Source: Geosiphon pyriformis uo1
Taxonomy: Eukaryota > Fungi > Glomeromycota
Direction: 5' to 3'
Length of the DNA: 64,000 nucleotides
Assembly: GCA_016748015.1 (NCBI GenBank)
Contig: JAAOMT010000176.1
Span: forward strand, 395,277 to 459,276
Shown piece by piece: positions 841 to 63,721 of this stretch. The number at the start of each line of letters is the position of its first letter. Position 1 is the stretch's first letter. The notes under the pieces were generated by a model that searched no databases, was not told the origin of the DNA, and saw only the letters and a list, made by a program, of their open reading frames with translations. Position numbers and translations under genes: made by a program.

Positions 841-1536
841 TGTTCTTAAAATCGAGCTTCAGAAAGACAAGAGGTAGGCAAGAATTTGAGGTCTGCCCAA
901 TACCACCAAACTTGTGCCATGGTTTGTTGATCTACAACCTTTATTGGCTAATTATTGGGGTTTATTCACAATATTAATTTACGATAATCGTCCTCTAGAT
1001 TTTTGATTATAATATACAGTGAGTGGTTGAAGGAGGTGCTATTTTTATAAGCTGCTTCCATTGTTAGGCAATTCTCGCAATGAATTCTAACAGTTTCACA
1101 GCAAGATGGTAAATTTGTAGTGCGAGAATCGCAGATCCCTTTGGCTTTCAAGTCTTTACTCCAAAAATCCCTGGTAAAAAGGGTACCCTGAGGATCGCTT
1201 TTGGCAGAATGTTGCCTTAGCAAAGCCGTTAAGATCCACGTATTCCCATTAATAAATAATTTAGAAAGAAATGAGAAGATCAATCTTACACATTGCTTCT
1301 AATAAAAAGTTTCAGGCTCATGAGTCCACTTGTGGTCGCACGAATGTAGATTTTCACATAGTGCGAAACACAAAACGTCTTGGTAGGCCCAATTAAAGTT
1401 AAAGAAAAAAGGTTACTCATCTAAAGGTTTATAGATTAAATGTTAGTTCTAATCGAATAGAAGAAAGAGAGAGATATATATATATATATAAAAACGTATA
1501 TTTTCAAAAAGCTTCTTGACCTCAATTAGAAAATTA

Positions 1537-3977: not shown

Positions 3978-4129
3978 AATTTAGAAAAAAGAACAAAACT
4001 CGATTGTGGATATTTGGTTTCAAATAATTCTTGTGAATTTTTGTTGATCTCTGATGAAGTTCCAATAACAGATAGAATTGAACTGTATATCACAAATATT
4101 TAAATATCACAATTTCCAAAATGCTTAAA

Positions 4130-17548: not shown

Positions 17549-17559
17549 TAACCTTCTCC

Positions 17560-18236
17560 TCAAGACTGAGCTCCATCGAAGTCCAAGTACTGTCTGTAAT
17601 TTCCAGATAATAATCCAAAATTATTGAAGAAATTTGGTCTGAAAATTGTTGAAATTTCAGTTCTGTGAGCTTTCCAATGTATTGAATCTTCAAAGACTGT
17701 AAAATTGGGTTTTGTAGGACGTTTTCACAGGTGTAGAATAGGTCATAAAGTCTAAGAACAGCTCTTAGTTTATAATAACTGTTTATAGATCCAGCTGTTG
17801 TCTTGAATTTGTTGTGAAGTTGTTTCTGAATAGCTTTTTTTGTGAGATTTGCTGCTGTAAGCTTCTATTTTTATTTGTAAAGTGTTTTTCCAATGTAGAA
17901 ATATTTATATATTGGAGTATAGTCATAGTTTTTTTCATTAAAACACAGTTGAAGTTTTTGTTGAATAGTAGCATTTGGTGGAATACTAATAGGAGTGAGT
18001 ATTAAGTTTTCTCTTAAAGCAAGCTTTAAAAGTTCTGACAAGTGAATTCCAGAATAACTTCTTGTATTTTTTTTATATGGGTAATATTTTCGTGAATTTG
18101 GGGCTAAATTTGTAACTACTTCTGTTTGGGTATAATTAATGTGGTTTCCAGTAATAGTAATGGATAATTTGGGTATTGTTTTTAAAGCTAACATTAGTTT
18201 TTGGGATAATTGTTGAATGTTTTGAGAAATAGTCAT
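17560..18236 (-). pseudogene. ORF3 of family B (unknown function, homologous to family A ORF3)
   Basis: MTISQNIQQLSQKL...YKYFYIGKTL...RAVLRLYDLF...YIGKLTELKFQQFSDQISSIILD; two internal stops; LDFDGAQS* in a shifted frame at the end. Confidence 0.75.
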
Positions 18237-22700: not shown

Positions 22701-25394
22701 GCAATAGTAACAGGTATGATTTCCATATTCTTCCTTGGGTGAAATACAAGCTCCCATTGATGAGAGTTTCTTGTGGCAATCTTTGCATTTGAGTGGAATG
22801 TAAGAGCATTGTTTTCGTGGTTCTGTTTTTGAATAGAAGATATTCCATCTGGGTGTCACTGGTTCTTTTGTTTCAAGAAAATTGTTTGTTGAAAAATACT
22901 GTTGTTTAGTTTCATCAGCCCAATTGAAGGTTGATCTAAGTGCCATAAATGTTTCAATGATGGGTTTTTCTTTTTCTGGTTTGAATTCAAAAGCCAGAGC
23001 TTTTTCGGAGCATTTGTTGAATGTACCACAAGTGGCAGGTACCCAGGCATGTTTTCCATGGTAGGAAATTGTTAACTCTTATGTCTTTCAATTCAGATTA
23101 GCATTGGCTTTTTGGAGCCAATCATTTCCGATAAGAGCTTGGTATTGGGGAACATCCATAATCAGAACTTTGACTGAAATGGTGATTCCGTCAATTGTAA
23201 ATGAGAAGTTGTCAATTTCTCCTACTGGAGTCTTTTTCATGCCATCGGCAGTAACAATTACTGTCTGAGCTGGTCGGTCAACATTTCTTTTTAACTGTTG
23301 CATCAACTGGTAGGTGATGATGCTTCCAGTGAATTCACTGTTTAGAATCAAGTGAATTGGCTTTCCTTCTGCTTCAGCTTCTGTGTACATTGCAGTGATG
23401 GCTTTTTGCTCATTAACTGCTGCATTGTTAAGCAAGAATGGTGATTCATTTGCTTCAAATTCGAAAGAGAATATATCTGAAAGATTGGCATTTTCAGCAA
23501 TTCTGGCTGGTGGAATTGTGGTAGGAGTATAGGAAGGGTTTTGTTGTTGTGCTGCAGCTCTACCTTCTGAAAGTGCAGTATGGTAAAAATCCTGTTCTTC
23601 TGGCATCATAAGATAACTGGGTTGAGTATGATAGTGGTTGGGTCTATGTTGATTCAAATTTTGAGTGGTTAATTGGTTGTTGGAATTTAATCTGTTGTTG
23701 TTTGTTGGAAAACGGTTTTGTGGTGTAAATTGATTATGTTGAACCAATTTTCTAGCTAGCACTTGATATTGTGGTGTGGATGGTTGTTGATACTGTTGTT
23801 GAATTAGTTGTAGAGCAGATTGATAATAGTGGTTTGGATATTGTGGCCTTGGTAAATATCGAGCTGGTGGTGATAGATAATATGATTGTTGTGGTTGAAA
23901 ATAACATTGATTATTTCTCTGTTGTTGGTCTTATTGCAATTTTCTACAATCACGTTTCCAGTATCCTGAAATTCTACAATAATGACAATTTTGGATTTGG
24001 TTGTTGGATGGTAGTCTGAAGTTGTTTTGATTGCATTATTGTAGGGGTTGATATTTTTGTGGTTGTTGTGATTGCTGCGGCAGCTGTTGTTGCTGTTGGT
24101 TGGTGAAGTAGTTTTCAACTTTTTTGGTTAATTGGTCAATCTTTTTTTCAGCTGCTGAGCTGGTTTTGCCAATAGCCAGGTTAACAAGTTTGGTACAGTT
24201 GGCTTCTTCCATGGCCATTTCATAGTTTTTCGCCTGTTGAATAGCAGTGGCTAAATTTTCTGGTGCATGTGGGTAAACTTTCTTGATAAGTTTGTCTTTT
24301 AGTCCAGCAATGAATTGATCCAAGATTTGTGCATTGGAGTAGTATTCATTGGTTTCCAATTGGTGAATCCTTCTAAGCAGTTTGTTAAATTTCCCAAGAT
24401 AGGTCATAACTGATTTACTTGGTTCTTGCTTGATATTTCAGAACCAATTTTGAAGAGTGATAGAAGTGTTATTGTTAGTGAACTGTTCTAGAAAAGCAGT
24501 TTTGAATGCTTCCCAGTGTTCTGGTGAGGCTTCCAAGTTTTCAAACCATTCACCGGCCGTTCCTTGTAAGAAGTATAGAATTGCTTTTAATATTCTAGCA
24601 GCATTTCAACCATTTACATCTCCTGCTTTTGAGACTTTGTCAAGCCATTTTTGAGGACTGGTTTCACTGTCTTCTTCTGTGAACTCAGGGATTTTTGTGA
24701 TATATGTGGAGGCCATTTTTTCTTCATTTTCTGAGTCTTCTGTTTCTTGTTCTGATTCGGTCTCTTCACTTTGATTTTCTGCTAAGTAGTCAATAAAGTT
24801 TGTGCTGGTTAATATTGGTTTCTGTTGTTGAATAGGGCTTTTGGATGACTGAAAATCTTCTATTCTTAAAAACTGAATAAATGGTGAGCTTGGTGTTTGT
24901 GGTTAAGCAAGTGAAGCTAGAAATAGTGTGATTGAGAATGGTAATTTAAAGCTGGTTCCTTGTTCTGGAGTTTGTAAATGTTTGGCAGTGGTTTTAGGTG
25001 TATTGGAAGTAGTTCTGAGTTTTTGTTTCCTTTTTCTTTTTCTTTTTTCTGTTTCTGATTCAAAACCAAGAGAAAATTTCTGTTCTACTGGGTAATTCTC
25101 TTTACAATACTGAATGATATTGAAGTTGAGTTCTTGGAAATATGTTTTAAGTGTTTGACTGTTAAAATTCTGAGTGTTTAGACAAGAGTAATGTATTAAG
25201 TTTTCATATAAGTTGTGTCTAACTTCTGAAATGTTGTAGTCTCCAAAAAGATAATTGTTGATGTAATTTTCAATATACTGGTAAAGTGTTTTCTTAAATG
25301 TTTCAATTCTGTCTGGGATGTTAAATCTCTGCTTGCAGTGGGTGTAGATTGACTGATAATACTCTAGAGTTTTTGGATCTGTTTGAGTCGCCAC
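19794..25394 (-). pseudogene. ORF1 of family B: Gag-PR-Cys-rich-dUTPase-RT-RNase H in one reading frame
   Basis: ORF fragments starting at 24407, 23762, 22946, 22445, 21464 and 20831 share one frame ending at TAG 19794-19796; knuckle CHYC..G..KRDC, dUTPase RSSLA/GGIINAGYTG/RGTQGFGSTG, RT YLDD. Confidence 0.9.
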
Positions 25395-25440: not shown

Positions 25441-26422
25441 TGTTACCAGAGGTTTTTGGTCTCTTTTCTTGAATGTTGTAACTGTCTGTTGATTGCAAAT
25501 TCACGTTTTCTAGAAGTAGTTGAACCTCCAATAATTGAATTTATCTTCAAATTATCTCCTATAATTTGAACTACTGGGCTTATAAGTGGAATGGCCAATT
25601 CTGTATTAGTTGCTTTGTGTAGTTACATTGTAGTGAATGTTAACTCTTTTCCAGGAATTGCTCATCTGGAAGCTCACTAAAAATGTGTAGTTACTTTGCT
25701 GTGAAAGTCAATTCTTCTACAGAAATCTTGTCTGTAGGCTACCCTAATGATGGTAATAAGAAAATAAAAGAAAGAAAATAAAAGAAATGTAAAAGAAATA
25801 GAATTCTGTCAGGAGAAACGTTTTCTATCCAGGCCTGGAGTCACTAACAGTTTAATGAAATTGGTAGCTAATCAATTTCAAAATGTTAGTTGGGTTTTGG
25901 GGATTTTCCAAGTGCAATAATTAAAGAATTTGGTTTTTTAATTTATTTAATATTTATTTCTTTTTGTGTGTGTAGGAATGGTTCTAAGTAATAAATCTAA
26001 AGTAAGATATATTTTCTCGAAAAAAGAAGCTCTTCTTTTATACAACTTGTTGTAACACTATTCTATGAACTTGAACTTTGCTCTTTTCTATAATTTCGCT
26101 GAACTAAAAATACATTTCAGTGAATTATAAGTTATTTCTGCAAACTATTAGATATTTTGGTAAACTATTAATTATTTCGGCAAATTTCTACAAATTTTGG
26201 CAAACTTTTGAATGTTACATATTTTGGGGTATTGTATGATTGATCATTGCACTTAGGTTACATTTGTGTTATGTACAAATTGGGTTATTAATTAAATGAT
26301 AATTTCGAACATTTTGCTAATGTAATAAGTGATAATTTGAAATGATAATATATGCTAATTAATGATAAGATTTATAAGGGTAATTTCATGCTAAACAATA
26401 TTTCTAATTTCGTCTAATAACA
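25441..26422 (-). repeat. 5' LTR of the family B element
   Basis: TG...CA termini, followed by a PBS-like sequence on the minus strand. Confidence 0.93.
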
Positions 26423-28631: not shown

Positions 28632-30014
28632 ATGAATATACAAAAATACCAATAACTCCAACATTATATAAATACCCAATTGTTCAAAGAGAAACTATCT
28701 CAAAAGAAACAAAACAACATAAAACAACAATCCAAATATTTTATTAACCACCAAAATATACTTTACCAGAAAAACAGAAAGAATTTAAATTAACCAACCA
28801 GAGTAATCACAGAACCAGAGAAAGAAACAATATTGTTCAACATGCACTCAGATCCAACAGCAGGACATTTTTACAAAGAAACAACCATAGAAAAAACTAG
28901 AAAAAGATACTATTGGCCATTAATGTATCCAAACATTATTTAATATGTTCAAAATTGTGATGCTTGTTAAAGAAGAGATGAAACAAAATCCAGTAAACCA
29001 TTAAGACCAATCAAAGTGGGACAACCATTTGATTACATTAGAATTGACTTAGTTAGACTATTAACCATAACCAGCAGAGGCAACAGATACATTGCAATAA
29101 CCATGGACTATTTTACTAAATGGCCAAAAGCAAAAGCCATTCAAAGAGCAGATGCAGAATTTGTTGCCAAATTTGTTTATCAAGATTTGATATGTCAACA
29201 TGAATGTCCAAAAAAACTACTATTAGATCAAGAAACTTACTTTGTGAATAGAACATTGGCAGAATTAAGTCAAAGATTTGGGATTAAAAAACCATTATCA
29301 TCACCATATCATCCACAAATAAATGGGTTAGTTAAAAGATTCAACAAAACATTGTGTAAAGTCATTGCTAAAATCAGCCAAAAAAACCAGGATGAATGAA
29401 ACTTGATTATACTATTAGTATTATTTGCTTATCGGACAATAAAGCAAGATACTACACAAGCAACACTATTCAAATTAGTATATGGTAGAACAGCAACATT
29501 ACCAGTTGAAATAGAAGTAAAAACATATTCAACAGAACCAATAACAGAAGAAAATTTTTAAAGAACATTATTAAGAAGAACATATGACTTAATGAAGACA
29601 CTAAAAAACAAATGATGAAAAGCAGTTGATAACATTTAAAAATTACAAAAAAAACAAAAAAAAAGACATGACAACCAACTATCAGATAAACCAATTAAAT
29701 TCAAGGTTGAAGACAAAGTACTTCTACATTATACTAAAGCGGAAAAACAATGAAGTAGAAAATTTGACTCCAAATAGAATGAACCATTTCACATAGAAAA
29801 AATTCTTGGAAATGGAGCTTATAAATTAAAATAGAACAACAAAATTTTAGCCAAAGTAGCACATAGTGATTGACTAAAACTATATCACTATATAATGTCA
29901 CTATCTACCAATAATATTCTACAATTAGAAGTACAGAGAATACTAGTCCAACCAAATAAGATTCAATGAGATCTGGAACCAATCATAATCATTGAACCAA
30001 ACATGAAAGATTAA
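28632..30014 (+). pseudogene. Stand-alone integrase ORF of A copy 1 (461 codons, internal stops)
   Basis: ATG MNIQKYQ 30 nt after the RNase H stop; MHSDPTAGHF, MDYFTKWPKAKAI; ends LEPIIIIEPNMKD*. Confidence 0.88.
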
Positions 30015-30038
30015 ACAATAAAAAGAGTATATAAAGAC

Positions 30039-30707
30039 ATGGTAGATGTAACAAAAGACTTCAGAAAAATGGAAATCACTAATGACATTCATGTACTAGC
30101 ACAACAACTATTCCAACTAATTCAACAACAGAATATGAAAATTACTATTAACCAACAAACCATTCAATACCAAGATACCAGAAAGATACCCAAATACAAA
30201 AGTCAAAGAAAAACAAAAAACACTATTAACAAAATGGTTTTAAAAATAAAATTAGCAATAGAAGAACCAATAAGTATCACCACATATCAAGAGTTGACCA
30301 AAGAAACTTGGAAATAGTGGATACATGAATTTCCAAAAAACTTTTGTTATTTCTACTTGGAACAACACTTGAATATTCAGAACTTATATACAGATAAAAC
30401 AAAACAATTATTTGACACAACAATACTGCAACAACTAAAACAATTTGTGGAAAAGAACAATTTGACTACACAAGTAAGAGCCATATATTGACTATATACT
30501 GGATTTTAAAACAGACCAGAAATTTTACTTAATCCAGAATTGGACTCCATTATGGTTAACCAAATGAGAAAAATAACCAATGCCCAATTTGAAGAATTAC
30601 AGAACAGGATAACACAAGTAATTCTTGAAAAAGAAGTTCAGAAAATACTCAAAAAGAGAGAATTAGAGTTAGGAGATTTGGAAAATCTTAATGGAGCTCA
30701 ATATTAA
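30039..30707 (+). pseudogene. ORF3 of A copy 1 (223 codons, internal stops)
   Basis: MVDVTKDFRKMEITNDIHVLAQQLFQLIQ...FCYFYLEQHL...GAQY*, colinear with 57856-58515. Confidence 0.8.
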
Positions 30708-37996: not shown

Positions 37997-39696
37997 TTAA
38001 GAGTTATCTAAATATAATAGAAAGTAAAATAAATGTTAAACAATAGCAAACATAAAAGTATATTACAGATTTTTTTTATATAATTTCTTACCTTTAAGCA
38101 AATAGACTAATTCTTTTAAGGAGTAAAATTTAATAATTAAATTAAAGAATTAACCAATTAAACAAAATATTTCTTATAAATTTAATTAATATAAACCAAC
38201 CTTTAGAAAAATCCATCATTTGCAAAATTAAAGGGCGACTTGTATAAACTGCTCCTGGATGAATGTGAGTTGTTGTTTTTGAGTCGTTCTTTAACATTTC
38301 TTTTACGTATTTCTCTGATTCTTTAAACTGATTCTCATTCTCAGACTCTTTATCTATATAGTCAAGTTCCCCCAACTTCTTTTCAACTTCCTTGGCAGTA
38401 GGACGATTCTTAGGATTAGGATGCCAACACTTTTTAATTATTTCGGCAATCGAAGGTGGAATAAGTGGGAAGGTAATCTTAGGCCTAGCCCCATTTAAAA
38501 TAGCCATTATAAGGATATTATCATGAGAATAATCATGAAAGGGAGGCTTTCCTGTTACTAATTCCCATAATAACATTCCATAACTATAAATATCACCAGC
38601 TGAAGTAAACTTTTCTCCTCTTAAAACTTCTGGTGGAATGTATGGAATCACTCCGTATATCTTTTTCTCATCTATTGTTATTATTGTAGTTGTTTTTGTT
38701 GTAGTTGTTATTGTTATTGTTGTTGCTGCTGTTGTTCTTGAACTTGTTGTCGTTTCTGAGTTCGATGTTGATGTCGTTGTTTCTGTTGTTGTTTGAGGGT
38801 TTGTAGGTTGAGATAATCCGAGGTCTCCAATTCTAGAGCTACAGCCAAATAGATTTTCTACAAGTAGGATGTTACCCGAGTGTAGGTTACGGTGAACCAT
38901 ACCAGCAGAATGAATGGTTTCAAGTCCTTGAGCTAAATTCCAAGCGATCATCAATTTATCTTCCCAACTTAATGAATGAAAATTTGTTGATAAATAATTT
39001 CTCATGTCTCCATGTTTGGCAAATTCCATCACAATTCCATACTCGAGTGTTTCAACGTTTTGTGTAATCCCCCATATTGAAGAGATATTTATCAAGTCGT
39101 CCTGGTTTTTATAAATAAACATGGCTCTTTGAATATTTAACTATGAACACAGTGTAAAATGTAAATAAACGGTAATATACAGTAAATAAATAATAGGTAA
39201 ATATGAATTAAACATAAATATAAATATAATAAATGAATTGTTTGTTTACCTCTTTAAACACTTCTGAACTGTTCGTTTTTATAATTTTTATTGCTACTTC
39301 TTTGCCTATTCTGTCTCTTTCATATTCCATTGAACCATGATGTTTTATTGTATCTGTATTAATTAATCCATCAAGTAGGGTTGCTTTATAAATTATACCA
39401 AACCCTCCTCTACCAATTTCGTTGATATTCGATAAATGCTTCCATGGAATCCATTCGTGATAATTCAAATAACCACTATCCTCTTTATCTTCATTATTAG
39501 GTGGAAAATAAATTGGATTCTTAATTATTTCATCCACTTCGTCATTGCCACTTGAAAAGTCTTTATAATGTTTTTCAAAAAATATGAACTGGCATGCATT
39601 ACAAAAATTAAAATTTTGAATGCTATTTCGACACCATATACATTCGTTACAATCATGAGGATACGGACGAGTTCTTTTAATTTCAATGTTTTCCAT
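37997..39696 (-). CDS. Glomeromycotina-type TKL-like protein kinase (exons 39696-39250, 39140-38201, probably 38112-38092 and 38007-37997)
   Basis: N-terminal CNECIWC..CNAC, EWIPW, IGRGGFGIIYKA, VAIK, HRNLHSGNIL, IGDLGLS, YGVIPYIPPEVL, DIYSYGM, CWHPNPKNRPT; GT-AG introns; last micro-exons less certain. Confidence 0.85.
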
Positions 39697-40022
39697 GGTA
39701 TAAAATAAAAAACAAATAATAAGGGATAAAATAAGAAGAAAATTATTCGAAAAAGGGTTTTTTTTTTAAAAAGCTTTTATTAATAGTATGTTTAAAAAGT
39801 AACTTTTTTAAAGATGGAGTTCGTATTTATGTTATTTCTCTATTTTAACAAATCAACTTATTTCATCAAAACTGTGATTCGTTATAAATCATACTAAATA
39901 GGTTTTCTATAGTACACAAAAGCTCTCTCTTGTCTCATTGTCTTATTGTCTTATAAAATAATAATTATAAAACGATTTAGGCTTTGTGAAGATATTAAAT
40001 AAAGTTTAAATTAATCAGGCTA

Positions 40023-42400: not shown

Positions 42401-42779
42401 AATAATTATGAAGTTAAGCATCTATATATTTTCATTTTCTATCGAAACATTCGAGAGCTAACAAAAACAACAATAAATTCGAAGCGTCCTTTTCTTTTTT
42501 AGTGCAAGGTATTCTTTTATGCATCATCATCATATCAAACCTAAATTTAGGCAACAAGAAAATCAGAGAATGGAAAACTTGTTTGGGGTCTTTTCTTTAT
42601 TATAGTTACTTAAACCTATTTAGTATTATTTGTGGGGAATAATAGTTTGATGAATAACGAAATTTTATGATTTATTAACATAGAGAAACAACATAAATAA
42701 AGCTTTAAAAAAAAACTCACTCTTCGAATAATAACTTTAATACTTTATCCACACTTATCCTTTGTTCTTTATCCACATT

Positions 42780-43761
42780 ATGGAAAACATTGAAATTAAA
42801 AGAACTCGTCCATATTCTCATGATTGTAATAAATGTAAATCGTGTCAACAGAGTATTAAAAATACAATAGTAAAAATTTTTGTATTGTATGCCCAGTTCT
42901 TATTTTTTGAAAAACTTTATCGTAACTTTTCAAGCGGCAATAAAGTAGTTGATGAAATAATCAAGAATCCAATCTATATTCTACCTAATAATAAAAATGA
43001 ATATAAAGATGATAGTGGTTATTTGAATTATTATGAATGGATTCATTGGGAACGTTTGTCAAATATCAAGGAAATTGGTAGAGGAGGGTTCGGTATAATT
43101 TATAAAGCAACCCTAATTGATGGATTAATTGATAAATCTACAATAAAACATCATGGTTCAATGGAATATAAAAAGGAAGGAAAAGACAGAGAAGTAGTAA
43201 TAAAAATTATAAAAACGAACAGTTCAGAAATGTTTAAAGAGGTAAACAAACAATTCATTTATTATATTTATATTTATATTTATGTTTAATTCATATTTAC
43301 CTATTATTTATTTATTTATTTATTTACTGTATATTACTTTTTACGCTGTGTTCATAGTTAAATATTCAAAGAGCTGGGTTTGTTAATAACAACGATAACG
43401 ACTTGTGTTTAATCTTTTCACAATATAGGGGATTACGCAAAACGCTGAAACACTCGAGTATGGAATTGTGATACCCTTTGCCAAACTTGGAGACATGCGA
43501 AAATATTTAACAACAAATTTTCATTCTACGAGTTGGGAAATTAAATTAAACATCGCACATGATATAGCTATTGGACTTAAAACCATTCATTCTTCTGGTA
43601 TGGTTCATCGTAACCTAAACTCGGGCAACATCCTACTTGTACTTGACTATTACCCTAGAATTGGAGACCTCGGATTATATCAACCTACAAACCATCAAAC
43701 AACAACAGAAACAACGACATCAACATCGAACTCAGAAACGATAACAAGTTCAAGAACAACA
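42780..43761 (+). pseudogene. Truncated paralog of the 37997-39696 kinase
   Basis: Same start MENIEIKRTRPY and same intron (43242-43357); frameshift plus TGG>TAG near 43425; HRNLNSGNIL; joins LINE RT sequence after the Thr-rich segment. Confidence 0.88.
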
Positions 43762-48451: not shown

Positions 48452-49233
48452 TTATTATTTTTTTTTTATGTTTAATGAGTAAAGTCCAAATGCTACCTAG
48501 AACTATACAACATACAAATATTCTAAACTAGGTGCGAATCATGTATTTTCTATACGTGACCAGCCACTCGAGCCAATCAGAACAACACTATACATCTATA
48601 TGAACAGAAACCATATCACTTATACCAGAAAAGAACCGACAATATTTATGAAACCCAAAACTAACACCAAAAGCATTAGTAACACCCAATAATTTAACCA
48701 CACCATCTGAAAGTAGCTTAGGGGGGTCTATCACTAGAAGGGGTAGAGAACCATTACACAGAATTGAACCATTTCCCTCCATAAGAGATCTGTGTTTGGC
48801 ATGAACCAACCAAACCTCCTCCCAAAAAGCAAGACAAAATTTTCACACAAAGTCCATGATGGTCAGAGCCGCCACCTTGGGATCCTTAAAAACAGAAATT
48901 GACTCACGGTACCAATCGTTAAAAACAAAACTTTTACAAAGAGCCATGCTAATCACAACATCAGAAACACACATTGACAACAACTATAAGACACATGAGG
49001 AGAAATGAAATAAACCAGTGTGAGTTTCCCATGCAGACGCATGAACACTGACCAACCGAGCATGGGCAGAAACATCAGACAGGCATGAAAACATGTGGTC
49101 AGAGACCTTAATATTACCACAATAAAGACATATTATGCTGGGATAGCACTTATTATATAACTGTTTATGTACAGCTACAGGAAGCTGATGATGCAGTGCC
49201 TTCATGAAATATGATTAACCATCAGCAGTACAC

Positions 49234-50105
49234 TGTTACTCATAGAAATATAGGAAATATATTAGCATACTTATTAGCCAATCAGAAGTAAGCATAGTAA
49301 ATGTAGAATTTCAGGATTCCTCTCAGGAATTGCAGGATTCCAGGAATTTCAAAATTCTCTCATGAGAAATTGCAGGATTTCAGAATTCCAGAATTCCTCT
49401 CAAAGGAATCGCAGGATTCCAGAAATTACAGGATTCCTGTCGTGAAGAATCAAGGAATTGAGGAATCCCAATTATATATATATAGTGGTAGTATTAGAAA
49501 CAGAAAAAACAGAATCGATATCACAGAATCCTTAACCAAGAAACAAAATCATCAAATAAATAATTATTCCATATCTCAATTCACTCTCCACTATCAACAC
49601 TTCATGTTGATAATAATTGATACTTAACCACACTGAAACAATAGCTCTTGATTATGGCTATTGATGGAATACTAATCTGCCGAACTGTTTAGGCTTATTT
49701 ATTTTCTTTTTTTATTTTCTTTTATTTCTTTTTTTTATTTTATTTGCTTTGATTGTTGTGTATACTAATTGATTAAAAGATTAAGCATGGAGTTATTGAC
49801 GTCAAGAATAGTCTGGTAAAAGACCCAGAAATAAGGGTAGGATTTTATATATTATTAGATAGCTTACCAGAAGGGCACAACTGCCAGACTAAATCCAGCC
49901 ATCATGCTGAGAAAGAAATTGGGAAAACTCTTGGAAAGATACACCTACTATTAACACTATTGAATCTCTGTCTATTATACAAAGAACTCCATCAAAACCT
50001 TCAGATACAATATTTTGCAGAACCTCATTCACGGAAGTAGCTTTTTTTGAGCACCAAGTTACGAATTGTTATTTAATTCAATAGCAGAAATAATCACCTG
50101 TAACA
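49234..50105 (+). repeat. 5' LTR of family A copy 2 (CCAAT box agccaatcag, U3 repeats, TATA-like tatatata)
   Basis: Direct repeat of 58529-59416. Confidence 0.95.
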
Positions 50106-50107
50106 TT

Positions 50108-50124
50108 TGGTGCTCTCTGTAAGG
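50108..50124 (+). promoter_or_regulatory. Candidate primer-binding site (tRNA not assigned)
   Basis: TGG start 2 nt after the LTR end; equivalent tggtg(c/t)t in all three full elements. Confidence 0.7.
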
Positions 50125-50167
50125 TATAATCTTACAGAAAACCAGCACCAACAACACCAAACCAAAA

Positions 50168-53100
50168 GTGGCAGAATCAGAAAATATAGGAGCAAACCAT
50201 TTAGAATTTGCAAAATCCTTATTTCAACACTATTGTCAATACTTGGAATTAAACCACAATCATATATCCGCCGAATCAGCCTTCAATTTCTACGTCAACA
50301 AAAAAATTTCCTCTTTATTAGGAACACCAGTGAATACTGAATCAGCAAGAGAAACTTTCTATAAGGAATTAATTTAAAACACTAACTTATCAACAAATCA
50401 TAATTTCGCATCCATTATCACTAAGATCAACAAAGAAATTAAACATCACACTCAACAAAAATATTCAATTACATATGCTAGTAAAGGCAAGGGAAAATTA
50501 CAAACACCAGTAGTAACACCCAGAAAATTACAGCCACCTGCTTGAAAGAAAAACAGAGTTGAATCCCCAGGCAACTCATCCTATCACTATACACCTGGAA
50601 GCACCATCAACATATCATCAACAGACACATTCCCATCAACTGCGACATCAGCATTTGGACGATTCCCATTCCAAAGTAGACAAAAGAAAACAGAATTGTT
50701 AGGACCATATGGCAAATACTTTGAGAGATTTAATTCGCGATCATCAACTTCATTAGGACTTTGATTACCACTGCCTCCACCAGATTTCAGAATCTCTGAT
50801 CCATGGAAAGTAGCAGAATCAGAAAAAGAGGAAGAAGAATCAAAGGATCAAGAATTTACTTACCAGTGCCCGATTACTGAAAACTGGGAAGTTGAAACCC
50901 CAAATTTTCAAATTCAGCAAAATCCAGATCTAGAAAATTTGGAAATCAAAACTCCAAATCATCAAAGGCAGAACAATCCAAACTCCGAATTAATTAATCA
51001 GCAAAACTTACTTCCAGTAATTGTCATCGATCAACCACCGATTAATCCCATAGCCGAACCCATACAGCAGCCACTTCAACTACCACCTCAACAACCAGTA
51101 CAACAACAACTGCTTTAACAGCCACAACCACCTAACTTAGATCTAATGGCCTACGCACCAATCGCAAAACTTGACAACTTTACTGGCAAAAAAGATGATG
51201 CTCAAATATGGCTGAATGATGTAGAAAAGGCCATCACAGCCAATGGATAGAATGACGTTCAAGCAATGCAAACCATTCCCTACTTTCTCAAGGATACCGC
51301 CAATTCATGGTACCAGAGCTTGATTAATAAACCACAAGATTTTAATGCCTTCAAAGCAAAATTCCTAAGATACTTTAGCAACAATAACAGCATCAATTGC
51401 CTAGTCAATGCATTCACCACCATAAAACAAGGAGAAACTGAAGCAGTTACCACTTATCTGGAATGCTTCCATCAAAACATATGCCAAATTCAAGCAATTG
51501 ATGCCAACTATTTCACAGCACCACAGATACTCAATCAGTTTATCCGTGGTCTGTGCAGCAGCATCTTGCAACATGTATGTTCATTGCATCCAGGTACCCT
51601 TCAAGACACAGTTACATGCACTAGAGATTTTGAATCCGCTGAGTCAGAGGCTAACCATGCCCAAGCCGTTAATCTAGTAATGAATGGATCATCTGAATTG
51701 GATTCCAAATTGGAGAAATTCAGTGAATCAATTAATAAGAGATTGGAAGGATACTTAGCTAACAATTATGCCATTTATCAGCCTTCACAACGATGCAATA
51801 ATTAAGGAAACTCTAATCGTGCCCAAAATCAGTTATGGCCATTTTCATCGACCAATCAACAGTGGCAACAAGAAACACATATCTACCACTATTGTGGTAA
51901 ACAAGGACACATCCAAATTGACTGTTGCCAGCATTTAAATAACCAACGATCAGGAAATCTATATTGAAACCCCGATTGCCAGTTCCAAACTCCAAATCAG
52001 TACCCAAATCAAAACCAACCCACTTACCTACCAGTGATGCAGTCATCCATCTATCAGTCTCCAGTATACCAAGCTCCAATCTATCAACCACAGCCACAAG
52101 TAATTTATCAACAACCGCAGCCGCAATTAATCTATCAACCCCAACAAACCCAAACACTGCCCCAAAGCTTACTACCCAATGGAACCCAAAGACTGAAAAT
52201 AACTCAACAGAGCTGGAGATCGGCGATAGTAGTCCATCAACCGATCCTCAGTTCTTCACAGCAATCATCTGGATTACGCCAGCAGAATTCAGGTACCGGC
52301 CAAGCCCAGAACCCAAATTCCCAGAACTATTTAAGTCTCCTGGTCACCCCAGAAGATGCCTTAACTAATAATCCAGCATTCGCCCAAAAACAACCACTCA
52401 CCAGTAATATCCCACCTGCTACTATCACCAAAAACGAGTCCTTGGCTGCTATCTTCTCATTCGAATTTGAGGAAACAGCTGCAATGCCATTACTTAGTGG
52501 AGCCGCTCTTGAAGCCAAACCAATCACCACAATGTATACTGACGCCAAAGTCAAAGGACAATCCATCAAATTGATCCTTGACAGCAGTTCAGTAGGCAGT
52601 ATTATCACATGGCAACTCATGGACTGATTAGGTCACCAAGTTGATTGAGCTGCCAGTGCCAGAATTATCACAGCCGATGGAGCGACCAAAACTCCAATCA
52701 GTAAAATTGACAACTTCTCTTTTGAAATCAATGGCATTGTGACTCCCATTAAAGTTCTAGTGATGGAAGCCACTCAATATCAAGCTCTTGTTGGTAATGA
52801 CTGGCTATCCAAAGTCAATGTGACGTTAGATTGGAACACCCAGGAACTCCAACTAACACATCAAGGCCAACACATATGTGTACCGGCCACGTGTGGCCAC
52901 TTCAAGACTTCTCCAAGAGAGAAACTATTGATCGAACTAGAGGAGGAGAAAGAGAAATCTACCTGGGAAGCCTACCAAGTGTCATGGGCTGATGAAAAGC
53001 ACAACGAACTGCCACCAATACTCCCCTGGAATAAACAACGACAATAGAAAAAGGAAACAAAAGGAAGAACTTACTTGGAAAACTGATGACTTGACCTGGA

Positions 53101-56100
53101 CCGACAATGATGAGAGTGAACCAACTTCAAGCTGAGAATGGGAAGAAAACAAAGAAAAAAAGGGAAAAGGGAAAGAGAGGGAGAAAGAAAACACTCAAGC
53201 CAACAATGCTTATATCCCATACACCTACAGTCAACAACAACCATCAACTTATCACTGACCCAAACTGATATGTGTTGATTGTGGCAAGAAATTGTCATCA
53301 ATAGGCACATGCTATGGTGACAACAAAGAATATCAGACAGCAACCAAGTTTTATTACCACACATGCTATATCAAACATTTTGGAAGACCAAAACAAATGA
53401 GAAAATGGGATAATACACCATATATAGCCTGTGGAAAAACTCTCTTGGATGATAGGATATGGAACGACATCCCAGAACATAGAGGAACATGCGACGTATT
53501 ATGTCAATACACGATTCTAATAAGCGACTGGGTAAGAAAAGAAACTCCAATAGAAGCAGCCTGGAAAAGAGCCATACAGTGACTGGACAATTGTCCCTAT
53601 GATGACGACGAGATTTGGCAAATGGCACTTGCCAAAATCAAAGAGGCGTCACCTGAGAAAATAAAAACAATCAAAGACAACCCCCAGAATCTTTAGAGCT
53701 TGACTGGAATGCAGAACCCATCATAAATCTCCTGGATCTGGAACAATTTCACGAACACTACCAAGAATTAGCACCCACAAGGAAAGAACAAAAACAATGG
53801 TTAAGGCAGTTAAATGCTCGACTATGTCAACACTGTCTAATTCCCTGTGACTTTCAGTATTGTGATGAGTGTGACCTCATTTACAATCCACCACCATGCA
53901 TGATCTATACGATCTCTGAAGAGGAAAAACCAATCAGCAGTTGTGCATCAGAATCGGAATCAATTTTCAATCCTGATTCAAACTCTAACAATGATAACAA
54001 CTAAAACACCAGTTCCAGTTCCGTTCAATATGGTGACAACAACAATACCAATTCCAACTCAGATTCAAACTCTGATTTAAATTACGAACAATACATTGCA
54101 TTACCAGATCTCTCCAAGGAACAAGAGTTGAAATGATATAGTGACAATGGGGAAGGTATTATGCCAGGATGTGCGCATGATATGGATGCAGGGTTTGATC
54201 TGAGATATCCAGGAAAAGATGCCATCAAATTGGAACTGCATTCACACACCTGCATTGATCTGAAAATAACACTAGAAATTCCGGCAACAACAATAGTTCA
54301 ATTAGCATCTAGGAGTAGTTTAGCGAAAAGAGGGATCAATATAAAAGGAGGAATAATTGACACGGGATATGTGAGAAATATCATTGCCATGCTACAAAAT
54401 GATTCCAAAAAGGCCTATATAATAGAGCCCAACAAAAAGATAGCACAGGCAATATTCCTGCCTCTGGTTAGAGTAGCTCAGTTAGTGTTAGTGAGAAAGA
54501 GGGAGGAATTAAGAATAACAGTGAAAGAAATACAAGAATTTGGATCAATGGGTAGAATAGATGTACCAGTCAATATGGCAGAGAAAAAAATTGTTGGCCA
54601 AGGAGAAATTATCTCAACTGGTCAAGCTATTTTCATTCCACTATATAACCAGTATATGCTAGCAATAGAAAGGAAAGAAAAGGAACAAGGACAAATTTTT
54701 GAAGCTAAAGCAAATCTTTGTGAATCAGGAGAGATTGGGTTGATCAATCTCCACATACTAGCCAAAAGCTATAGCAGCATAAAAATTCCCATCTACAACA
54801 ATACTGGCAATGTTATCAACATACCAGAAGAAACCACTATCAGATATTTAACCACAAAAATAGAGGACCAACCACCCAACCCTATTCCAGACTTTCCACA
54901 ACTTTGTGGATATATTGACATCACATCACAAACAATCTATGGATGAGATGAATGTTATTTGCTCCAACCAGAACAATTGGAACAAATGAACATGGGAAAC
55001 TTAGATCCACTCCAATGTATGCAGCTCAAGATATTACTCAACAATTTCAATGACATCTTTGCCAGTAAAAATGAGTTTGGCCAAACTGACATCATCCAGC
55101 ATCAGATCAAGACTGAAGATGCAATGCCAATCAAACAAAGAGCATACAGAGTGCCACCAGCCAGCCATGAAATCATTTGTCAAGAGATAAACAGAATGCT
55201 TGACAATGGGCTAATTCAATCATCAATGAGCTCATGGTCGTCACCAGTGGTACTCGTCCATAAGAAGAATAGAAAAATCTGGTTTTGTGTAGACTACAGG
55301 AAACTCAATGATATAACTCGTGGAGACAGTTATCCAACTCCACGAATACAGAAATTATTTGACACTTTTGGTGAGAACAAATGGTTCTCAACATTAGATT
55401 TGAACAGTGGTTACTGACAAGTAGTTATGAATTCAGCTGACAAAGAGAAGACAGCATTTACTACTAGAGAAAAGAATTTCGAATTTGAAGTAATGCTATT
55501 CGGCTTAACCAATGCCCCAGCAACTTTTCAGCAGCTAATAGAAATTGTTTATACTGACTTATTGTAGAAATCAGTAGTTGTATACTTGGATGACACCAAT
55601 GTATTCTCAAAAATGTTTGATGATCATCTTCATTATCTTCAACAAGTGTTTAAAAGACTAAGAAAAGCAGGACTAAAGTTAAATGCAACAAAGTGCTTCT
55701 TCAGCAAGACAGAACTAAAATTCTTGGGACACATAGTCAGCAAAGATGGCATCAAAACGGATCCAGAAAAAATAAAAATAGTAAAGAACTTTCCAGTGCT
55801 GACCAATATGACAGAACTGAAATCATTCTTGGGATTCGCCAGCTACTATCAACGTTTTATTAAGAACTTTTCCAAGATAGCGCAGCCACTCAACCAACTG
55901 CAGAACAAAGATACAAAATATGAATGGACCGAAAGTCAACAAGAAGCTTTTAATACTCTAAAAAAAAAGCTTATACAAGCTCCAGTACTGATCTATTCAG
56001 ATCACAGCAAACCATTCATCATTACCACGGATGTATCTGGCCAGGCATTAGGAACAGTACTATCTCAGAGAGGACCAAACAGCAGGGAACATCCAGTAGC

Positions 56101-56386
56101 ATATGCCAGCAGAGGTTTAACACCAGCCGAAAAAAACTATGGAACACCAGAAAAAGAACACTTAGCAATATACTGGTTAGTCATGAAATGGAAAGAATAT
56201 TTAAGCCAGAAGTTTGAAGTGTATACAGATTACAAAGAATTAACATCACTTCAAAAACAAAAATTTGGAGATGGAAGACAGTCAAGATGGAAAATGGCAC
56301 TCGCACCATATAAGTATACTATACATTATAAAAAAGGAAAAGACAATAGAAATGTGAACAGTTTATCACAAATAAGACAAATCTAA
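50168..56386 (+). pseudogene. ORF1 of A copy 2: Gag-PR-Cys-rich-dUTPase-RT-RNase H
   Basis: Fragments at 50168, 51266, 52034, 52739, 54161, 54959 and 55586 are in one frame (one compensated indel pair around 53030-53690); LILDSSS, AGFDL/RSSLA/GGIIDTGY, YLDD, TDVSG, EKNYG. Confidence 0.92.
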
Positions 56387-56448
56387 GAACATTTCAACCC
56401 AAAAATATAACAAAACCAGAACAATACCAACAAAAAATACAACAAAAG

Positions 56449-57831
56449 ATGAACATACAAAAATATCAACAATTACAACATTATATAAACACTCAACAGT
56501 TCAAGGAGAATTTATCTCAAACAAAATGAAAGAGTATTAAACAACAATCAAAATATTTTATCACTTACCAAAATATACTTTATCAGAAAAATAGAAGGGA
56601 TCCAAATCAACCAACCAGAATAATTACAGAGCCAGAAAAAGAGACAATATTATTCAACATGCACTCAAATCCAACAGCAGGACATTTTCACAAAGAAGCA
56701 ACCATGGAAAGAACCAGAAAGAGATACTATTGGCCATCAATATACCCAAACATCATTCAATATGTTCAAAATTGTGATACTTGTCAGCAAAGAGAAGGAA
56801 CAAGACCCAGTAAACCATTAAAACCAATCAAAGTGGAACAACCATTTGACTGTATTGGAATTGATTTAGTCGGACCATTAACAATCACCAGCAGAGGAAA
56901 CAGATACATAGCGGTAGCTATGGACTATCTCACTAAATGGCCAGAGGCAAAAGCAATTCAAAGAGTAGATGCAGAATCTGTTGCCAAATTTGTTCATCAG
57001 GATTTGATTTGTCGACATGGATGTCCAAAAGAATTATTATCAGACCAAAGAACTCATTTTGTGAACAGAACATTAACAGAATTGAGCCAAAGATTCAGAA
57101 TTAAGAGACTATTATCATCATCATACCATCCACAAACCAATGGATTAGTAGAAAGATTCAATAGAACATTGTGTGAAGCAATAGCTAAGCTCAGCCAAAA
57201 AAACCAGAACGATTGGGATTTGTTCATACCATTAGTACTATTTGCTTATTGGACAATGAAACAAGATACTACACAAGCAACACCATTTGAATTAGTATAT
57301 GGAAGAACAGCAACGTTACCAGTAGAGAGAGAAATTAATACATATCCAGCTGAACCAATAACAGAAGAAAATTTTCAAGAAACATTGCTGAGAAGAACAT
57401 ATGACTTAATGGAAACATTGGAAAACAAACAAAGAAGAGCAGCTGATAATATTCAAAAGTCACAAAAAAAACAGAAAAAAAGACATGATAGTTAACTACC
57501 AGATAAACCAGTTAAATTCAAGATTGGAGACAAAGTATTACTACATCGTACCAAAGCGAAAAAACAGTGAAGTGAAAAATTCAACTCCAAATGGGATGGA
57601 CCATTTCACATAGAAGAAATTCTAGGAAATGGAGCTTACAAATTAAGATTGGATAACAAAATTTTAACCAAAGCAGCACATGGAAATCGACTGAAGCCAT
57701 ATTACAACATTATACTACCATCTACCAGTAATATTCCACAATTAGGAGTACAGAGAATACTAGTCTGACCAGAGGAGATTCCACGAGATCTGGAACCAAT
57801 TGTTCTTATCAACAACAACACGTTAAATTAA
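56449..57831 (+). pseudogene. Stand-alone integrase ORF of A copy 2 (461 codons, a few stops)
   Basis: Own ATG 62 nt after the RNase H stop; HHCC (HSNPTAGH..CDTC), IDLVGP..SDQ..NGLVERFN, WDGPF, LEPIVLIN. Confidence 0.92.
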
Positions 57832-57855
57832 TCAATCAAAAGAATATATAAAGAC

Positions 57856-58515
57856 ATGGTAGATGTGACAGAAAATATCAGAAAAATGGAAATTACAGAC
57901 AACATTTACACACTAGCACAACAACTCTTTTAATTAATCCAACACCAGGAAATGGAGATTACAATCAATCAACAAACCATTTGATATCAAGATACTAGAA
58001 AGACATTGCAGCTCAGAACACTGAAAAAAACTGAAAATATGGTGGACAAAATCATGGCGAAAATAAAATTAGCAATAAAAGAATCAACAAAAGAGTCACT
58101 ATATCAAGAGTTGACTAAAGAAACTTGGAATTGGTTGATACAACAATTTCCACCAAACTATTGTTATTTTTACTTGGGACAACATGTAAATATCCAGAAT
58201 CTATATACGGATAAAACAAAGCGATTATTCGACAAAAGAATACTACAACAATTAGAACATTTTGTGGAAAAAAACAACTTATCCACACAAGCCTGAGCCA
58301 TATACCAAATACACACAGCATTTCAGGATAAACCAGAAATATTGCTCAACAAAGCAATAGATATGGTTACCAGTAATCAATTGGGAAAAATCACCAATGC
58401 TCAATTTGAAAAATTACAGACCCAAATAACACAAGTAATTCTTAAAAACAAAATCCAGAAAATACTTCAAGAAGAGAAATTACATGAGTTGGATTTTGAC
58501 GGAGCTCAATATTAA
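57856..58515 (+). pseudogene. ORF3 of A copy 2 (220 codons, three internal stops), unknown function
   Basis: ATG 24 nt after the integrase stop; ends LDFDGAQY* at the PPT; homologs in A copy 1 and family B. Confidence 0.82.
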
Positions 58516-58528
58516 AAGGAGAGAATAA

Positions 58529-59416
58529 TGTTACTTATAGAAATATAGGAAATATATTAGCATACTTATTAGTCAATCAGAAGTAAGTATAATAAATGTG
58601 GAATTCCAGGATTCCTCTCAGGAATTGCAGGATTCCAGGATTCCTCTCAGGAATTGCAGGATTCCAGGAATTTCAAGATTCCCTAACAAGGAATTGTAGA
58701 ATTCCAGAATTCCAAGATTCCTCTCAAAGGAATTGCAGGATTCCAGGAATTTCAGGATTCCTGTCATGAAGAATCAAGGAATTGAGGAATCCCAATTATG
58801 TATATATAATGGTAGTGTTAGAAACAGAAAAGACAGAATCGATATCACAGAATCCTTAACCAAGAAACAAAATCATCAAATAAATAATTATTTCATATCT
58901 CAATTCACTCTCCACTATCAACACTTCATGTTGATAGTAATTGATACTTAACCACACTAGAACAATAGCTCTTGATCATGGCTATTGATAGAATACTAAA
59001 TTGCTGAACTGCCTAGGCTTATTTATTTTCTTTTATTTCTTTTATTTATTTTATTTGCTTTGATTGTTGTGTATACTAATTAATTAAAAGATTAAGCACG
59101 GAGTTATTGACGTCAAGAATAGCCTGGTAAAAGACCCAGAAATAAGGGTAGGATTTTATATATTATTAGATAGCTTACCAGAAGGGCACGATTACCAGAC
59201 TAAATCTGGCCACCATGCTGAGAAAAAAATTGGGAAAACTTTTGGAAAGATACACCTACTATCGACACTATTGAATCTCTGTCTATTATACAAAAGACTC
59301 CATCAAAACTTTTAGATACAACATTTTGCAGAACCTCATCCACGGAAGTAGCTTTTTTTAAGCACCAAATTACGGGTTGTTATTTAATTCAACAGCCAAA
59401 ATAATCACCTGTAACA
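58529..59416 (+). repeat. 3' LTR of family A copy 2
   Basis: TG...CA; carries an extra ~29-bp U3 repeat unit relative to the 5' LTR. Confidence 0.95.
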
Positions 59417-62400
59417 ATGCTTACTAGTGAAACCAGCAGCCAAATGAGAATCTGAATGTCACACCAAAGAAGATCTGAACCAATCAATGTCCAAACGCAA
59501 GCTTTCTATCATAATCCGAGAGCTCGAACCCATCTCCTATCGTGTACAATGAACAGATCGGAACACATCATGGACAAAATGTCTAGAATTACCAAATACC
59601 GCAGTATCACCAGCCATTAAAAACCACTCACTGATAGAAGGAGGTAGGTGCAAGTTAGAAAAAGCAGCAGCCTTAGCTAAAGCATCAGCACGCTCATTGC
59701 CTAAGACACCCGAATGGCCCTTAATTTTAATCCAACTAACATCCAAGTTTTTGCGATGAATGACATTGGCGATGTAACAACACTCAATCCAACAACAATT
59801 CCTAAAATCAGGGCCAGCCGATAAAGACTCCAACCTGCAAGCATCAATAGCCGCCTGGCTGTCCAAGAACAAATCTACCGAACAAAAGGAAAGAACACAC
59901 TCAAGAGCTAAAGCAATGGCCTGCAGCTCCACCAAAGTAGAAAAAACCACACCAGAAATTCTCACACCCAGACCCAAATCAATGTCCTCAAAGAAAACTG
60001 CAGCACCAGCCAACATGTCAACCATGCCCAAGTTACTCAAAGACCCATCAGTGTACACAGAGAGATAGGTGACATCCACACCCAACAGATTGTGACAAAC
60101 AACACCAAAACCAAGAGACTGATGGATGTTATAAGAACTATCAACACCATTATGAGTGGAATGACCAGAAGGAGAAGCTATATCACCAAGAAAATAAACA
60201 GAGAGATCAAACCAGGAGGGGACTGGGCCACAGGAGTCCAGTCTCTTCCAATGCTTGAAAGTCTTCCAATCAAAAACAATGCCATTCCAGTTACAAAGCT
60301 GTTTCACAAAAGCAATACCATAATGCCTGAGAGAGGAGACACATTTGAAGAAAATTTTCTCACTGAGTACCAAAGACATAGGAGTACCACATCAAAGACA
60401 AAAAACACCAGCCAGAAAGCCACCCAAAGACAAATTACATTCAGAAAAAATATGAACTACACTTGCCAAAAAGTTGTTTGAAGGGCTGACTCTAACACAA
60501 ACAGAAAACAACAAAGGGTGACGAGGACTCCAGTTGAGAACCTGGAGATTATAAGACCTATGAAAGAACAAACGACCTAAAACACCAACCAAATTCACAA
60601 AAGCAATAACAGAAGCTGACTTGCTCTTAGCCTGAATCTGCTCAAAAGTCTTTAAATTGTACAAGGAAGGATGATGAAGTGCATCATTGGGAAAGTCCAG
60701 AGGCAGCCCAGATTTGGACTTCAGGCCCTTGCAAATCAAAGTGTCCCACTTATTACACACACTGAGAGGAATAAAACTGAACTGAATTCTGTAGCTGATG
60801 ATGGGAAAGAGAACTGAAGACACTAAATAAGCAAACTGTTTTCTAAAATAACCTTTCTCAGAATGAAATTGACAAAAAACTGAATGTCTGAATGCGCCTT
60901 AACCAAGCTAGGCTTCGAAAGACCATCAGAAGATAAAAAAATACCCAGATAATAATAAGGTTCACCTCTTTTAGTGATGGAAATTGGCATACCACTAATA
61001 GTTAGATAAGAAGCAGCAACCCAACAGTTGATAGAAATGGCCACAGTCTTGTCATTGTTTATCGAAATGTCATTCAAATGAAAGAACTCACTAGCAACAT
61101 TGAGGATGTGTTGTGTAGCAGCTTGGCTGCTACTGACCCAGATAGTATCATCAACAAAAGCACTAGCGGCCAGAAACGATGACAGCCCAGCTTGAGATTC
61201 CACCCAGCCAGTCTTAGAAACAAAATGAGAAATCAACTTGTAACCACAAACACTTTTTTGTCTCTTAACCTCACACAAAAGCAAGTCATAAAATATGCGC
61301 CAGAGAAGTGGTGAAAAAACTTCCCCCTGATTCAATCCATTGTGAACATAATATCCATTAGTTAAACCAAAATCTGTCATTATTTTATTAGTGCAACCAT
61401 TATAAATGCCACCAAAAAATCTGATGAATTTGTCACATATTTTGATCTTAATCAAACTCCTCTTGAAATGTTCCCAACCAACAGAATTATAAGTTTTGCG
61501 CATATCCTGTAAAACCAGCCACAACTTTCGGTTCTTTTCCAAAGCATCTTCGATTACCGAACCAATAGTGAAGATAGGTAATTGAGTAGACGTACCTTTC
61601 AGAACAGAGAAATTGTCCCCGCGGAGAACATCAAAAGTGCTACAAGCCAGAGAGATCTGATCTGAAAAAATCTTGGAAAGAACCTTGCGAGCTGTTTCAA
61701 TTAAAGCAATAGGACAGGTATTTATAAGAATCCCCTCCCACTTATAAAGTTTAGGGATTATTGAGACCCAGGCTTCCCTCCAAGGTCCAGATATTGACTC
61801 ACAATCCAAACAGAAATTCAAGAGCACCAAAAGCATATCCAAGATTGCCTTGTCACAGTGTTTCCAAAGTTCATTAGTGATATCAGAAAGACCAGCCGTT
61901 TTTCCATTGGACAAATTTGAAATAACACCAAACATCTCATCAAAACTGATTGAATGTATTACATCAGAGAAGGCACCATCAAAGACATGATCCAAAGGCC
62001 GAAACTGCCTTGCCCAATCACCAGAGATATCAGAAGCCACCACACGTCTCTTAGTCCAACCCTTCATAATTCCATTCACCTTAGATTTAACCAAATCAGG
62101 CTCCAAGACCAACTTCCCATCATCCACCAAATGATCCAACACCACTTTATGAACAGGACACTTCAAAACACTCCTAATGGTGTAACCTTTATTCATCTCA
62201 AAACTCTCCATTCTCTTCTCAATAGCCTGCCTTATACAAGATTCTTCAGCACGCTTAGATTCCAATAACTTAGAAGAGCAGTAAGACTTTCTCACCTTAG
62301 CCAGCCCAGAACAGATCACATCAAAGCTGGTGCCAGAAAGAAACAGAGCTTTCACTAATGAAGCACTCACAGAATTAAGTCTGTCCCAAGTATCCAACAA

Positions 62401-63721
62401 CGAGGCAAAATCCCTACCAGAAACCAACCAAGAAGCCTTCACCAGTTTAGACACAAGTAGCTCAAGTCTATGAAACCAGAAAGATACCTTATTAAAAACA
62501 CAATTGAAACCCTTAAATCATTTTTTTTTGAACGTTTCACCAGCTGAAAAAACCATAACCTTATGAACAATATCCCATATTGCATCCAGATCAGAAAACT
62601 GCATAGCCACAACATACTCATCCAAGAACATAACCACATTAGCAGCCATAGCATTCCTGAATTCTGACCACTTAATCTTATTGGCATCTTTGATATCATA
62701 CTTCCAATAATCTTTATTAGCTTGTTTACACAGTAAATTTAGCTGAACATCGAGCAGGCCACCCAGTCTCACAGAAACATAAACGGCTTTGTGATTGGTA
62801 TCAAAATATTTCTCAATGCCATCCACACCACAATCCACTACCACTCCAGCCAAATTAGAGGAAACAAACACATAGTCAATTGTCTTAGTGATACTATAAG
62901 AATTGCACCAAGTAGGTGACTTTACAAGAGAGCTCCTCCCCAGAGAGTTAATCAAACCCAAATCAAAACATTTTTTAAAGCTGGCACATTTGTGCAAACC
63001 ATCCTCATTAAAATCACCACCAAGAATAACAAAAGAAGACTTATTAACGGCTTTAGCAATAAGAGAGTTGATCTTACCAGCCTGAGAAAACCAAGCCACC
63101 AATGAAGCACCAGCATAGAGCCCCAAAATAGACACCAAAAATTTATTTTTGAAAAGCAACTTGATGGATAAGAGCTAACCAGACACCTCAAAAATCTTGC
63201 AGACATGCTTTGCTAAAGAAGAATTCACGACGATTAACACCCCAGCATCCGAAGAACCAGAATCCAGATCAGAAGCAAAAACTTGAACACCATCAAATTT
63301 GTCGGCTAACCATGGGTGAACTTTCCTTTTAAGCTTTGACTCTGTGAAAATAGAAACCAAATTATTCATATCTTTGTGCCAACAAATGACATCATCTTGC
63401 TTCGCAGGATTGTTCAACCCATGAACATTACATGTAGCAATTTTTTATACCAGACTATTCATTGAGAAAGAGGGAGAGGAAAAGCACCACCTGCCAAAGC
63501 CAAACTATCCAAGTGCGCTAATAGGCTTATGACTGAAGCAGAAAGATCTTCCAACATGTTTTCTAATTTTACAACTTCAGATGAGGCAGTTGAACCAAGA
63601 ATGGCAGCAGTCTTGTCACTAGTGGCATCACCTAAACCCATTCCCATTACTATATCCTCTCCTTGATTCTGTAATGGGAAGTCACCAGCAGCTGACGTCC
63701 AGGACTAGGCTGGGAAACTGC

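Follow-up and report, generated by a model that had tools for sequence, protein, structure and literature searches.

To our knowledge, fungal Ty3/Gypsy elements have been described as gag-pol only, plus a few added domains. Plant and rotifer elements, by contrast, are known to carry extra open reading frames (ORFs) downstream of pol (passages of PMC11963269, PMC11728184 and PMC5408684). These additional 3′ ORFs (aORF or ORF3) of plant Athila/Tat elements, of Retand (TRP28) and of bdelloid rotifers are conserved and lie between pol and the 3′ long terminal repeat (LTR). DNA binding and regulation of the element have been proposed for TRP28 in passages of PMC11963269, and passages of PMC11728184 and PMC5408684 describe many aORFs as having no function assigned so far. 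We analyzed a stretch of 64,000 nucleotides from the fungus Geosiphon pyriformis (contig JAAOMT010000176.1, here called the window), which holds three LTR elements, A, B and C, together with solo LTRs. All three carry a frame, ORF3, that like the aORFs is conserved, selected and located between pol and the 3′ LTR. Unlike the known aORFs, this ORF3 is at once sense, fungal and free of a membrane segment, esterase or exonuclease domain, and it has no Pfam match to them.

57856 to 58515, + strand: ORF3 of element A, 219 codons plus stop, with internal stops at codons 26, 43 and 147 (57931, 57982 and 58294)
30039 to 30707, + strand: ORF3 of element C, 61% identical to ORF3 of A, with three internal stops
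17517 to 18236, - strand: ORF3 of element B, 25% identical to ORF3 of A, with two internal stops

An earlier note on this DNA had placed a sense ORF of about 220 codons between integrase and the polypurine tract (PPT) in all three elements, and we found it at the same place in A, B and C. In element A it comes after the SH3 domain of integrase (PF24626) and reaches as far as the PPT, and in element B it continues through the PPT into the 3′ LTR. The element A copy is dead. Its frame holds three stops over 57856-58515, against 10-15 in each of the other five frames.

The earlier note had let its case hang on purifying selection, and this was found. When the A and C copies of ORF3 were compared over 213 codons the NG86 omega was 0.27, against 0.26 for integrase over 377 codons and 0.50 and 1.16 for the two shifted sense frames of ORF3. 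A neutral simulation gave a mean omega of 0.71, and in none of 300 runs was omega as low as the one observed. The three codon positions held 52/34/75 mismatches (p 4e-4). Since the decay of these elements is transition-rich a transition correction was applied; with kappa of 5-20 omega was 0.52-0.66 and the 95% limits stayed below 1. Non-synonymous transversions at positions 1-2 numbered 35 of 63 in ORF3 and 5 of 28 in integrase. The estimate comes from a single pair of decayed copies, and A versus B gave an omega of 0.75 that is too saturated to interpret. ORF3 was formerly under purifying selection, and the constraint is real but looser than that on integrase.

These values bear on whether the frame is a gene at all. 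A by-product of repeat copying could look like the element A copy with its three stops, and many of the database entries are automatic gene calls on repeats. However, an omega well below the neutral simulation largely refutes this reading. Families about 25% identical still show homology, some relatives are intact and the modelled fold is confident, which leaves it extremely improbable. We take ORF3 to be a genuine accessory gene that was under selection in a non-chromoviral Ty3/Gypsy lineage.

Every listed match of A-type ORF3 (110/110) and of B-type ORF3 (120/120) is a hypothetical protein of G. pyriformis. Intact proteins of the A and B families match each other in pairwise BLASTP at E 2e-10. 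A joint profile retrieved 115 representatives among 1.84 billion proteins. These represent six or more Geosiphon families, whose prototypes are 19-66% identical to one another. Twenty representatives were looked up; 18 are named Geosiphon and two, P0272 and P0277, are metagenome proteins, both intact, whose ends resemble the motif-PPT-LTR junction of family B, from which we infer a post-integrase position. In family D automatic gene models fuse the integrase SH3 end with ORF3 (PF24626 in 6 of 37 matches), therefore ORF3 has the same position there. The positional evidence covers elements A, B and C and family D; in families E and F the position was not seen. Hundreds of G. pyriformis "hypothetical proteins" are copies of this one retroelement gene. 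The earlier note had also pointed to a Glomeromycotina motif in the C-terminal half. This agrees loosely with the ESM Atlas, where the first match of an intact relative was a 98-member Mucoromycota cluster (score 0.94, 176/256 features, recognition below the tool threshold), but every named sequence match is Geosiphon.

A metagenome scan with the integrase end returned at least 47 loci. A quick-search integrase tree was built from 33 rows, namely A, B and C and 30 of 49 loci (rows with fewer than 200 aligned residues excluded). In it A, B and C group with L001-L005, L027 and L040 at a moderate SH-aLRT (approximate likelihood ratio test) support of 85. They stand apart from rows with chromodomain-like ends and beside Athila/Tat-like rows, the labels having been read from the sequences. 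Two of these loci, L005 and L027, are nearly complete elements in which gag and pol are open, and they carry post-integrase frames of 218 and 245 codons, respectively. Against eight ORF3 prototypes their summed alignment scores exceeded 500/500 and 498/500 shuffles, respectively. An ORF3 profile score as high was reached by 88/500 shuffles for L005 and 0/500 for L027; a six-frame search with that profile missed both, and hhalign was weak. We consider both frames probably homologous to ORF3. The L027 frame (8713-9450) crosses the PPT and, in a nef-like manner, overlaps the LTR repeat array by about 90 codons. In L002 a truncated frame bears the same Y-Y-x-G motif; L001, L003 and L004 have at most 134 bases of downstream sequence, and in the decayed L040 no recognisable ORF3 match was found. 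Outside the tree, the AT-rich element L034 has a similar integrase end and appears to reach its PPT (after 852) without ORF3; it is possibly an ORF3-less sister element.

At the integrase end of element A (57400-57810) no chromodomain was found, only SH3_Tf2-1 (PF24626) and a weak Integrase_p58_C match; with no chromodomain at the integrase C-terminus, A, B and C lie outside the chromoviruses. In A and C integrase and ORF3 share a frame and are separated by one TAA plus eight conserved codons (57829-57855 and 30012-30038), a junction that could possibly be a read-through or local promoter signal. The eight codons in A and C also hold a TATATAAA string. A shared frame beside an integrase without a chromodomain match is what would be expected if ORF3 were an integration-targeting partner that takes the chromodomain's place, whether fused to integrase by read-through or acting as a cofactor of its own. 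However, in B, L005 and L027 the ORF3 frame differs from the integrase frame, so fusion is not the rule of the lineage and we regard this role as improbable.

Like the env and env-like ORFs of Metaviridae, ORF3 is post-integrase and in sense. It differs from them in its length of about 220 residues, its soluble helical model and its lack of a hydrophobic anchor in 84/84 aligned members: by hydropathy alone (19-residue window, with no dedicated predictor) none of the 84 reached 1.6, the largest value being 1.43. ORF3 is not env, as it has no signal-like or transmembrane stretch. The earlier note's description of a soluble, mostly helical, non-envelope protein therefore stands, and no already described accessory ORF family was matched in Pfam or in fold comparisons of the modelled relative.

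The structure model of an intact relative has a predicted local distance difference test score (pLDDT) of 82, and comparisons with PDB, BFVD, Pfam and PHROGs gave nothing significant. In the predicted layout of P0277 a small N-terminal helix-strand-strand module (7-38) is followed by a linker that is basic and by a helical core (81-200) predicted with confidence. A conserved G-K-[TN]-N turn connects two helices of the predicted core, and an A-x-x-R-L-x-x-x-F helix follows. This helix-Gly turn-helix unit is the most conserved part of ORF3, which is soluble and mildly basic. ORF3 thus represents a protein family that has no name as yet and whose confident model resembles no fold in these comparisons.

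The Atlas gave a feature match to the closterovirus coat protein PF01785, which was not among the significant Foldseek or Pfam matches. Were ORF3 derived from a filamentous virus, as a captured coat or movement protein, it might help particles or RNA move through coenocytic hyphae. The shared-feature count, however, is below 170, the level that the tool associates with genuine members of a family, nothing in BFVD matched at E 0.001, and a Pfam coat match occurs in 0/84 members; such an origin is very improbable.

Each ORF3-bearing element with a known LTR has a short-repeat array right before a TATA-like box, and the motif is specific to the family.

58600 to 58790, + strand: array in the U3 region of element A, a near-palindromic 10-mer (RGAWTTSCAG type), before the TATA-like box at 58797; candidate ORF3 target
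17219 to 17330, - strand: array in the U3 region of element B, a different motif with 20-21 base spacing, six matches

Exact matches to the RGAWTTSCAG type number 16 in the window, where 1.3 would be expected; 15 of the 16 are in A/C-type LTRs, and none is in the LTR of element B. At one mismatch there are 12 in 272 bases versus 4 in 8423 internal bases. The element B motif has six more matches at 26093-26204, and the LTRs of L005 and L027 hold further, different array motifs.

Because these arrays accompany a soluble, mildly basic protein with a helix-Gly turn-helix unit, regulation of the cognate LTR is the simplest interpretation: ORF3 may be a DNA-binding regulator of the family-specific repeat arrays before its own LTR's TATA box. 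We hold this tentatively, with a probability of roughly 0.4. The helix-turn-helix-like unit would bind the short repeat array upstream of the TATA box in U3, and the bound protein would increase transcription or protect the LTR from methylation. The array motif would be particular to each family and matched by that family's ORF3. Candidate routes of expression are a spliced RNA, a subgenomic RNA or, in A and C, read-through. Among the functions proposed in the earlier note, transactivation has weak support, and neither silencing suppression nor a role in movement is backed or contradicted.

The helix-turn-helix basis of this reading consists of sub-threshold ParB/YhcG-type hints that fail profile tests. 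With the ParB-type helix-turn-helix the hhalign score was 11.3, equal to the shuffle mean, while a positive control gave 91%. For the N-terminal domain of YhcG/DUF1016 (PF17761) the scores were 12.9-14.6 bits against a cut-off of 32.8, and the hhalign score of 16.5 was within the shuffle range; the 66-column alignment had an E of 0.01 and the control an E of 0.019. Compared with ParB/Spo0J/KorB and YhcG, ORF3 is at chance level in profile tests and lacks the ParB N-terminal and nuclease domains. In addition, the array patterns were drawn from these same LTRs, so their counts show clustering only. Passages of PMC1189080 describe the YhcG N-terminal domain as helical and unassigned. The YhcG (DUF1016) N-terminal domain (L051-L161) aligned with the ParB helix-turn-helix region at an hhalign probability of 91% over 53 columns.

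As a working analogy for the LTR regulator we use VANC of Arabidopsis VANDAL, likewise an element-encoded accessory protein beside family-specific tandem motif arrays (passages of PMC5735166). In contrast to ORF3, VANC belongs to plant DNA transposons; a sequence or fold link was not seen, and binding by ORF3 is putative. If ORF3 does bind its own LTR, it would be an element-encoded switch or counter-defence with natural matched protein-motif pairs, and the intact relatives P0277, P0272, L005 and L027 make a direct test feasible. LTR sequence makes up 41.2% of the G. pyriformis genome according to passages of PMC11952901. A broader proposal, which we regard as doubtful, is that non-chromoviral Gypsy elements of a lineage widespread in early-diverging fungi make a sequence-specific factor of their own for transcription or against silencing, a highly diverged ParB/YhcG-type helix-turn-helix protein of possibly bacterial origin that co-evolves with the LTR arrays in a VANC-like manner, and that this helps to explain the abundance of LTRs, 41% of the Geosiphon genome.

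ORF3 could instead suppress host silencing by acting on small RNAs or proteins of the host and not on LTR DNA. Arbuscular mycorrhizal fungi methylate transposable elements and make small RNAs from them (passages of PMC8647823), and the excess of non-synonymous transversions in ORF3 over integrase would fit an arms race. However, accessory genes usually change fast, and no known viral suppressor was matched in BFVD or PDB; we judge a silencing suppressor quite unlikely.

A further conserved feature lies at the end of the frame.

58496 to 58509, + strand: conserved DNA motif before the PPT of element A, core GGAGCTC; the reading is DGAQ in A and C, TELS/MELS in B and L027

In A and C the core occupies codon frame 0, in B and L027 frame 2. 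Among the matches listed, A-type ORF3 ends are FDGAQ-type in 45/110 and ELSLEE-type in 0/110, and B-type ends are ELSLEE-type in 91/120 and FDGAQ-type in 0/120; the ELSLEE-type ends are B-type matches that read through the PPT into the LTR. Since the core is read in different frames and the ends differ by family, LDFDGAQ is, at the level of sequence, a nucleotide signal and not a protein motif. Thus of the four blocks said to align between A and B in the earlier note three do align, but LDFDGAQ, in B at 17589-17566, lies off B's ORF3 frame.

ORF3 could instead be an RNA-binding factor, a Rev-like export, packaging or reverse-transcription helper that recognises the RNA of its own element, perhaps through this motif. 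However, the motif is constant while ORF3 has diverged to about 20-25% identity, and no family of that kind was matched, the PNPase rows covering the three-helix bundle only. We consider an RNA-binding role unlikely.

A literature search that did not extend to Repbase, Dfam or subscription papers found no description of an ORF3 family. It is absent from passages of the fungal surveys PMC3248453 and PMC2864245 and of PMC11952901, a survey of transposable elements in arbuscular mycorrhizal fungi, and passages of PMC8778642 hold no relevant content. A figure legend in PMC2864245, a chromovirus-centred survey, marks an "add. ORF" with no function stated, which may or may not belong to the ORF3 family. 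ORF3 is apparently an undescribed accessory protein family.

The elements of the window and the other features of element A are as follows.

49234 to 59416, + strand: element A, LTR element
10790 to 31608, + strand: element C, LTR element interrupted by nested B
26415 to 16567, - strand: element B, LTR element nested inside C
49234 to 50105, + strand: 5′ LTR of A, 88% BLASTN match to 58529-59416
51251 to 51805, + strand: gag capsid fragment (Retrotrans_gag E 9.5e-12, Ty3_capsid E 4.3e-7)
52649 to 53044: protease, weak matches (E 0.017)
54137 to 54946, + strand: dUTPase segment between protease and reverse transcriptase (RT) (PF00692 E 3.4e-18)
55568 to 56386, + strand: RT end and RNase H (RT_RNaseH_2 E 1.9e-34, RVT_1 E 2e-11)
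56530 to 57831, + strand: integrase (H2C2, rve, SH3), decayed, ending at TAA 57829-57831
58514 to 58525, + strand: PPT, overlapping the ORF3 stop
58529 to 59416, + strand: 3′ LTR of A, BLASTN pair of the 5′ LTR

Because it has gag, protease, dUTPase, RT/RNase H and an integrase with an SH3 end, we call element A a Ty3/Gypsy LTR retrotransposon, consistent with its LTR pair, PPT and protease-RT-RNase H-integrase order. A dUTPase between protease and RT is likewise found in fungal Gypsy elements of Postia (PosPlaTy3), Phanerochaete and Tuber (passages of PMC2864245). Over 859 aligned bases the two LTRs of A differ at 63 sites, of which 58 are transitions; with over 90% transitions, the elements are decaying. 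No matching target-site duplication was seen on the flanks of element A (49226-49233 versus 59417-59424), which suggests recombination between two copies, or decay.

Long extra inserts are present in pol (A 53100-54100, B 22680-23930, L027 3361-6705). They are Cys-rich and lie between protease and dUTPase, except that in L027 the insert is long and between RNase H and integrase; the element A pieces scanned gave no Pfam match. Long N-terminal extensions of gag precede the capsid domain in L005 (5086-5700), L027 (460-1600) and B (about 25440-24900), with a CxxC motif in those of L005 and L027. Outside the LTR elements, an inverted pair of about 1 kb and 83% identity (38730-39777 and 42699-43761) has open frames in each arm. 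Decayed long open frames on the minus strand (59537-63174 and 377-3980) are probably remnants of LINE-like RT/RNase H, and element A appears to be inserted beside one of them.
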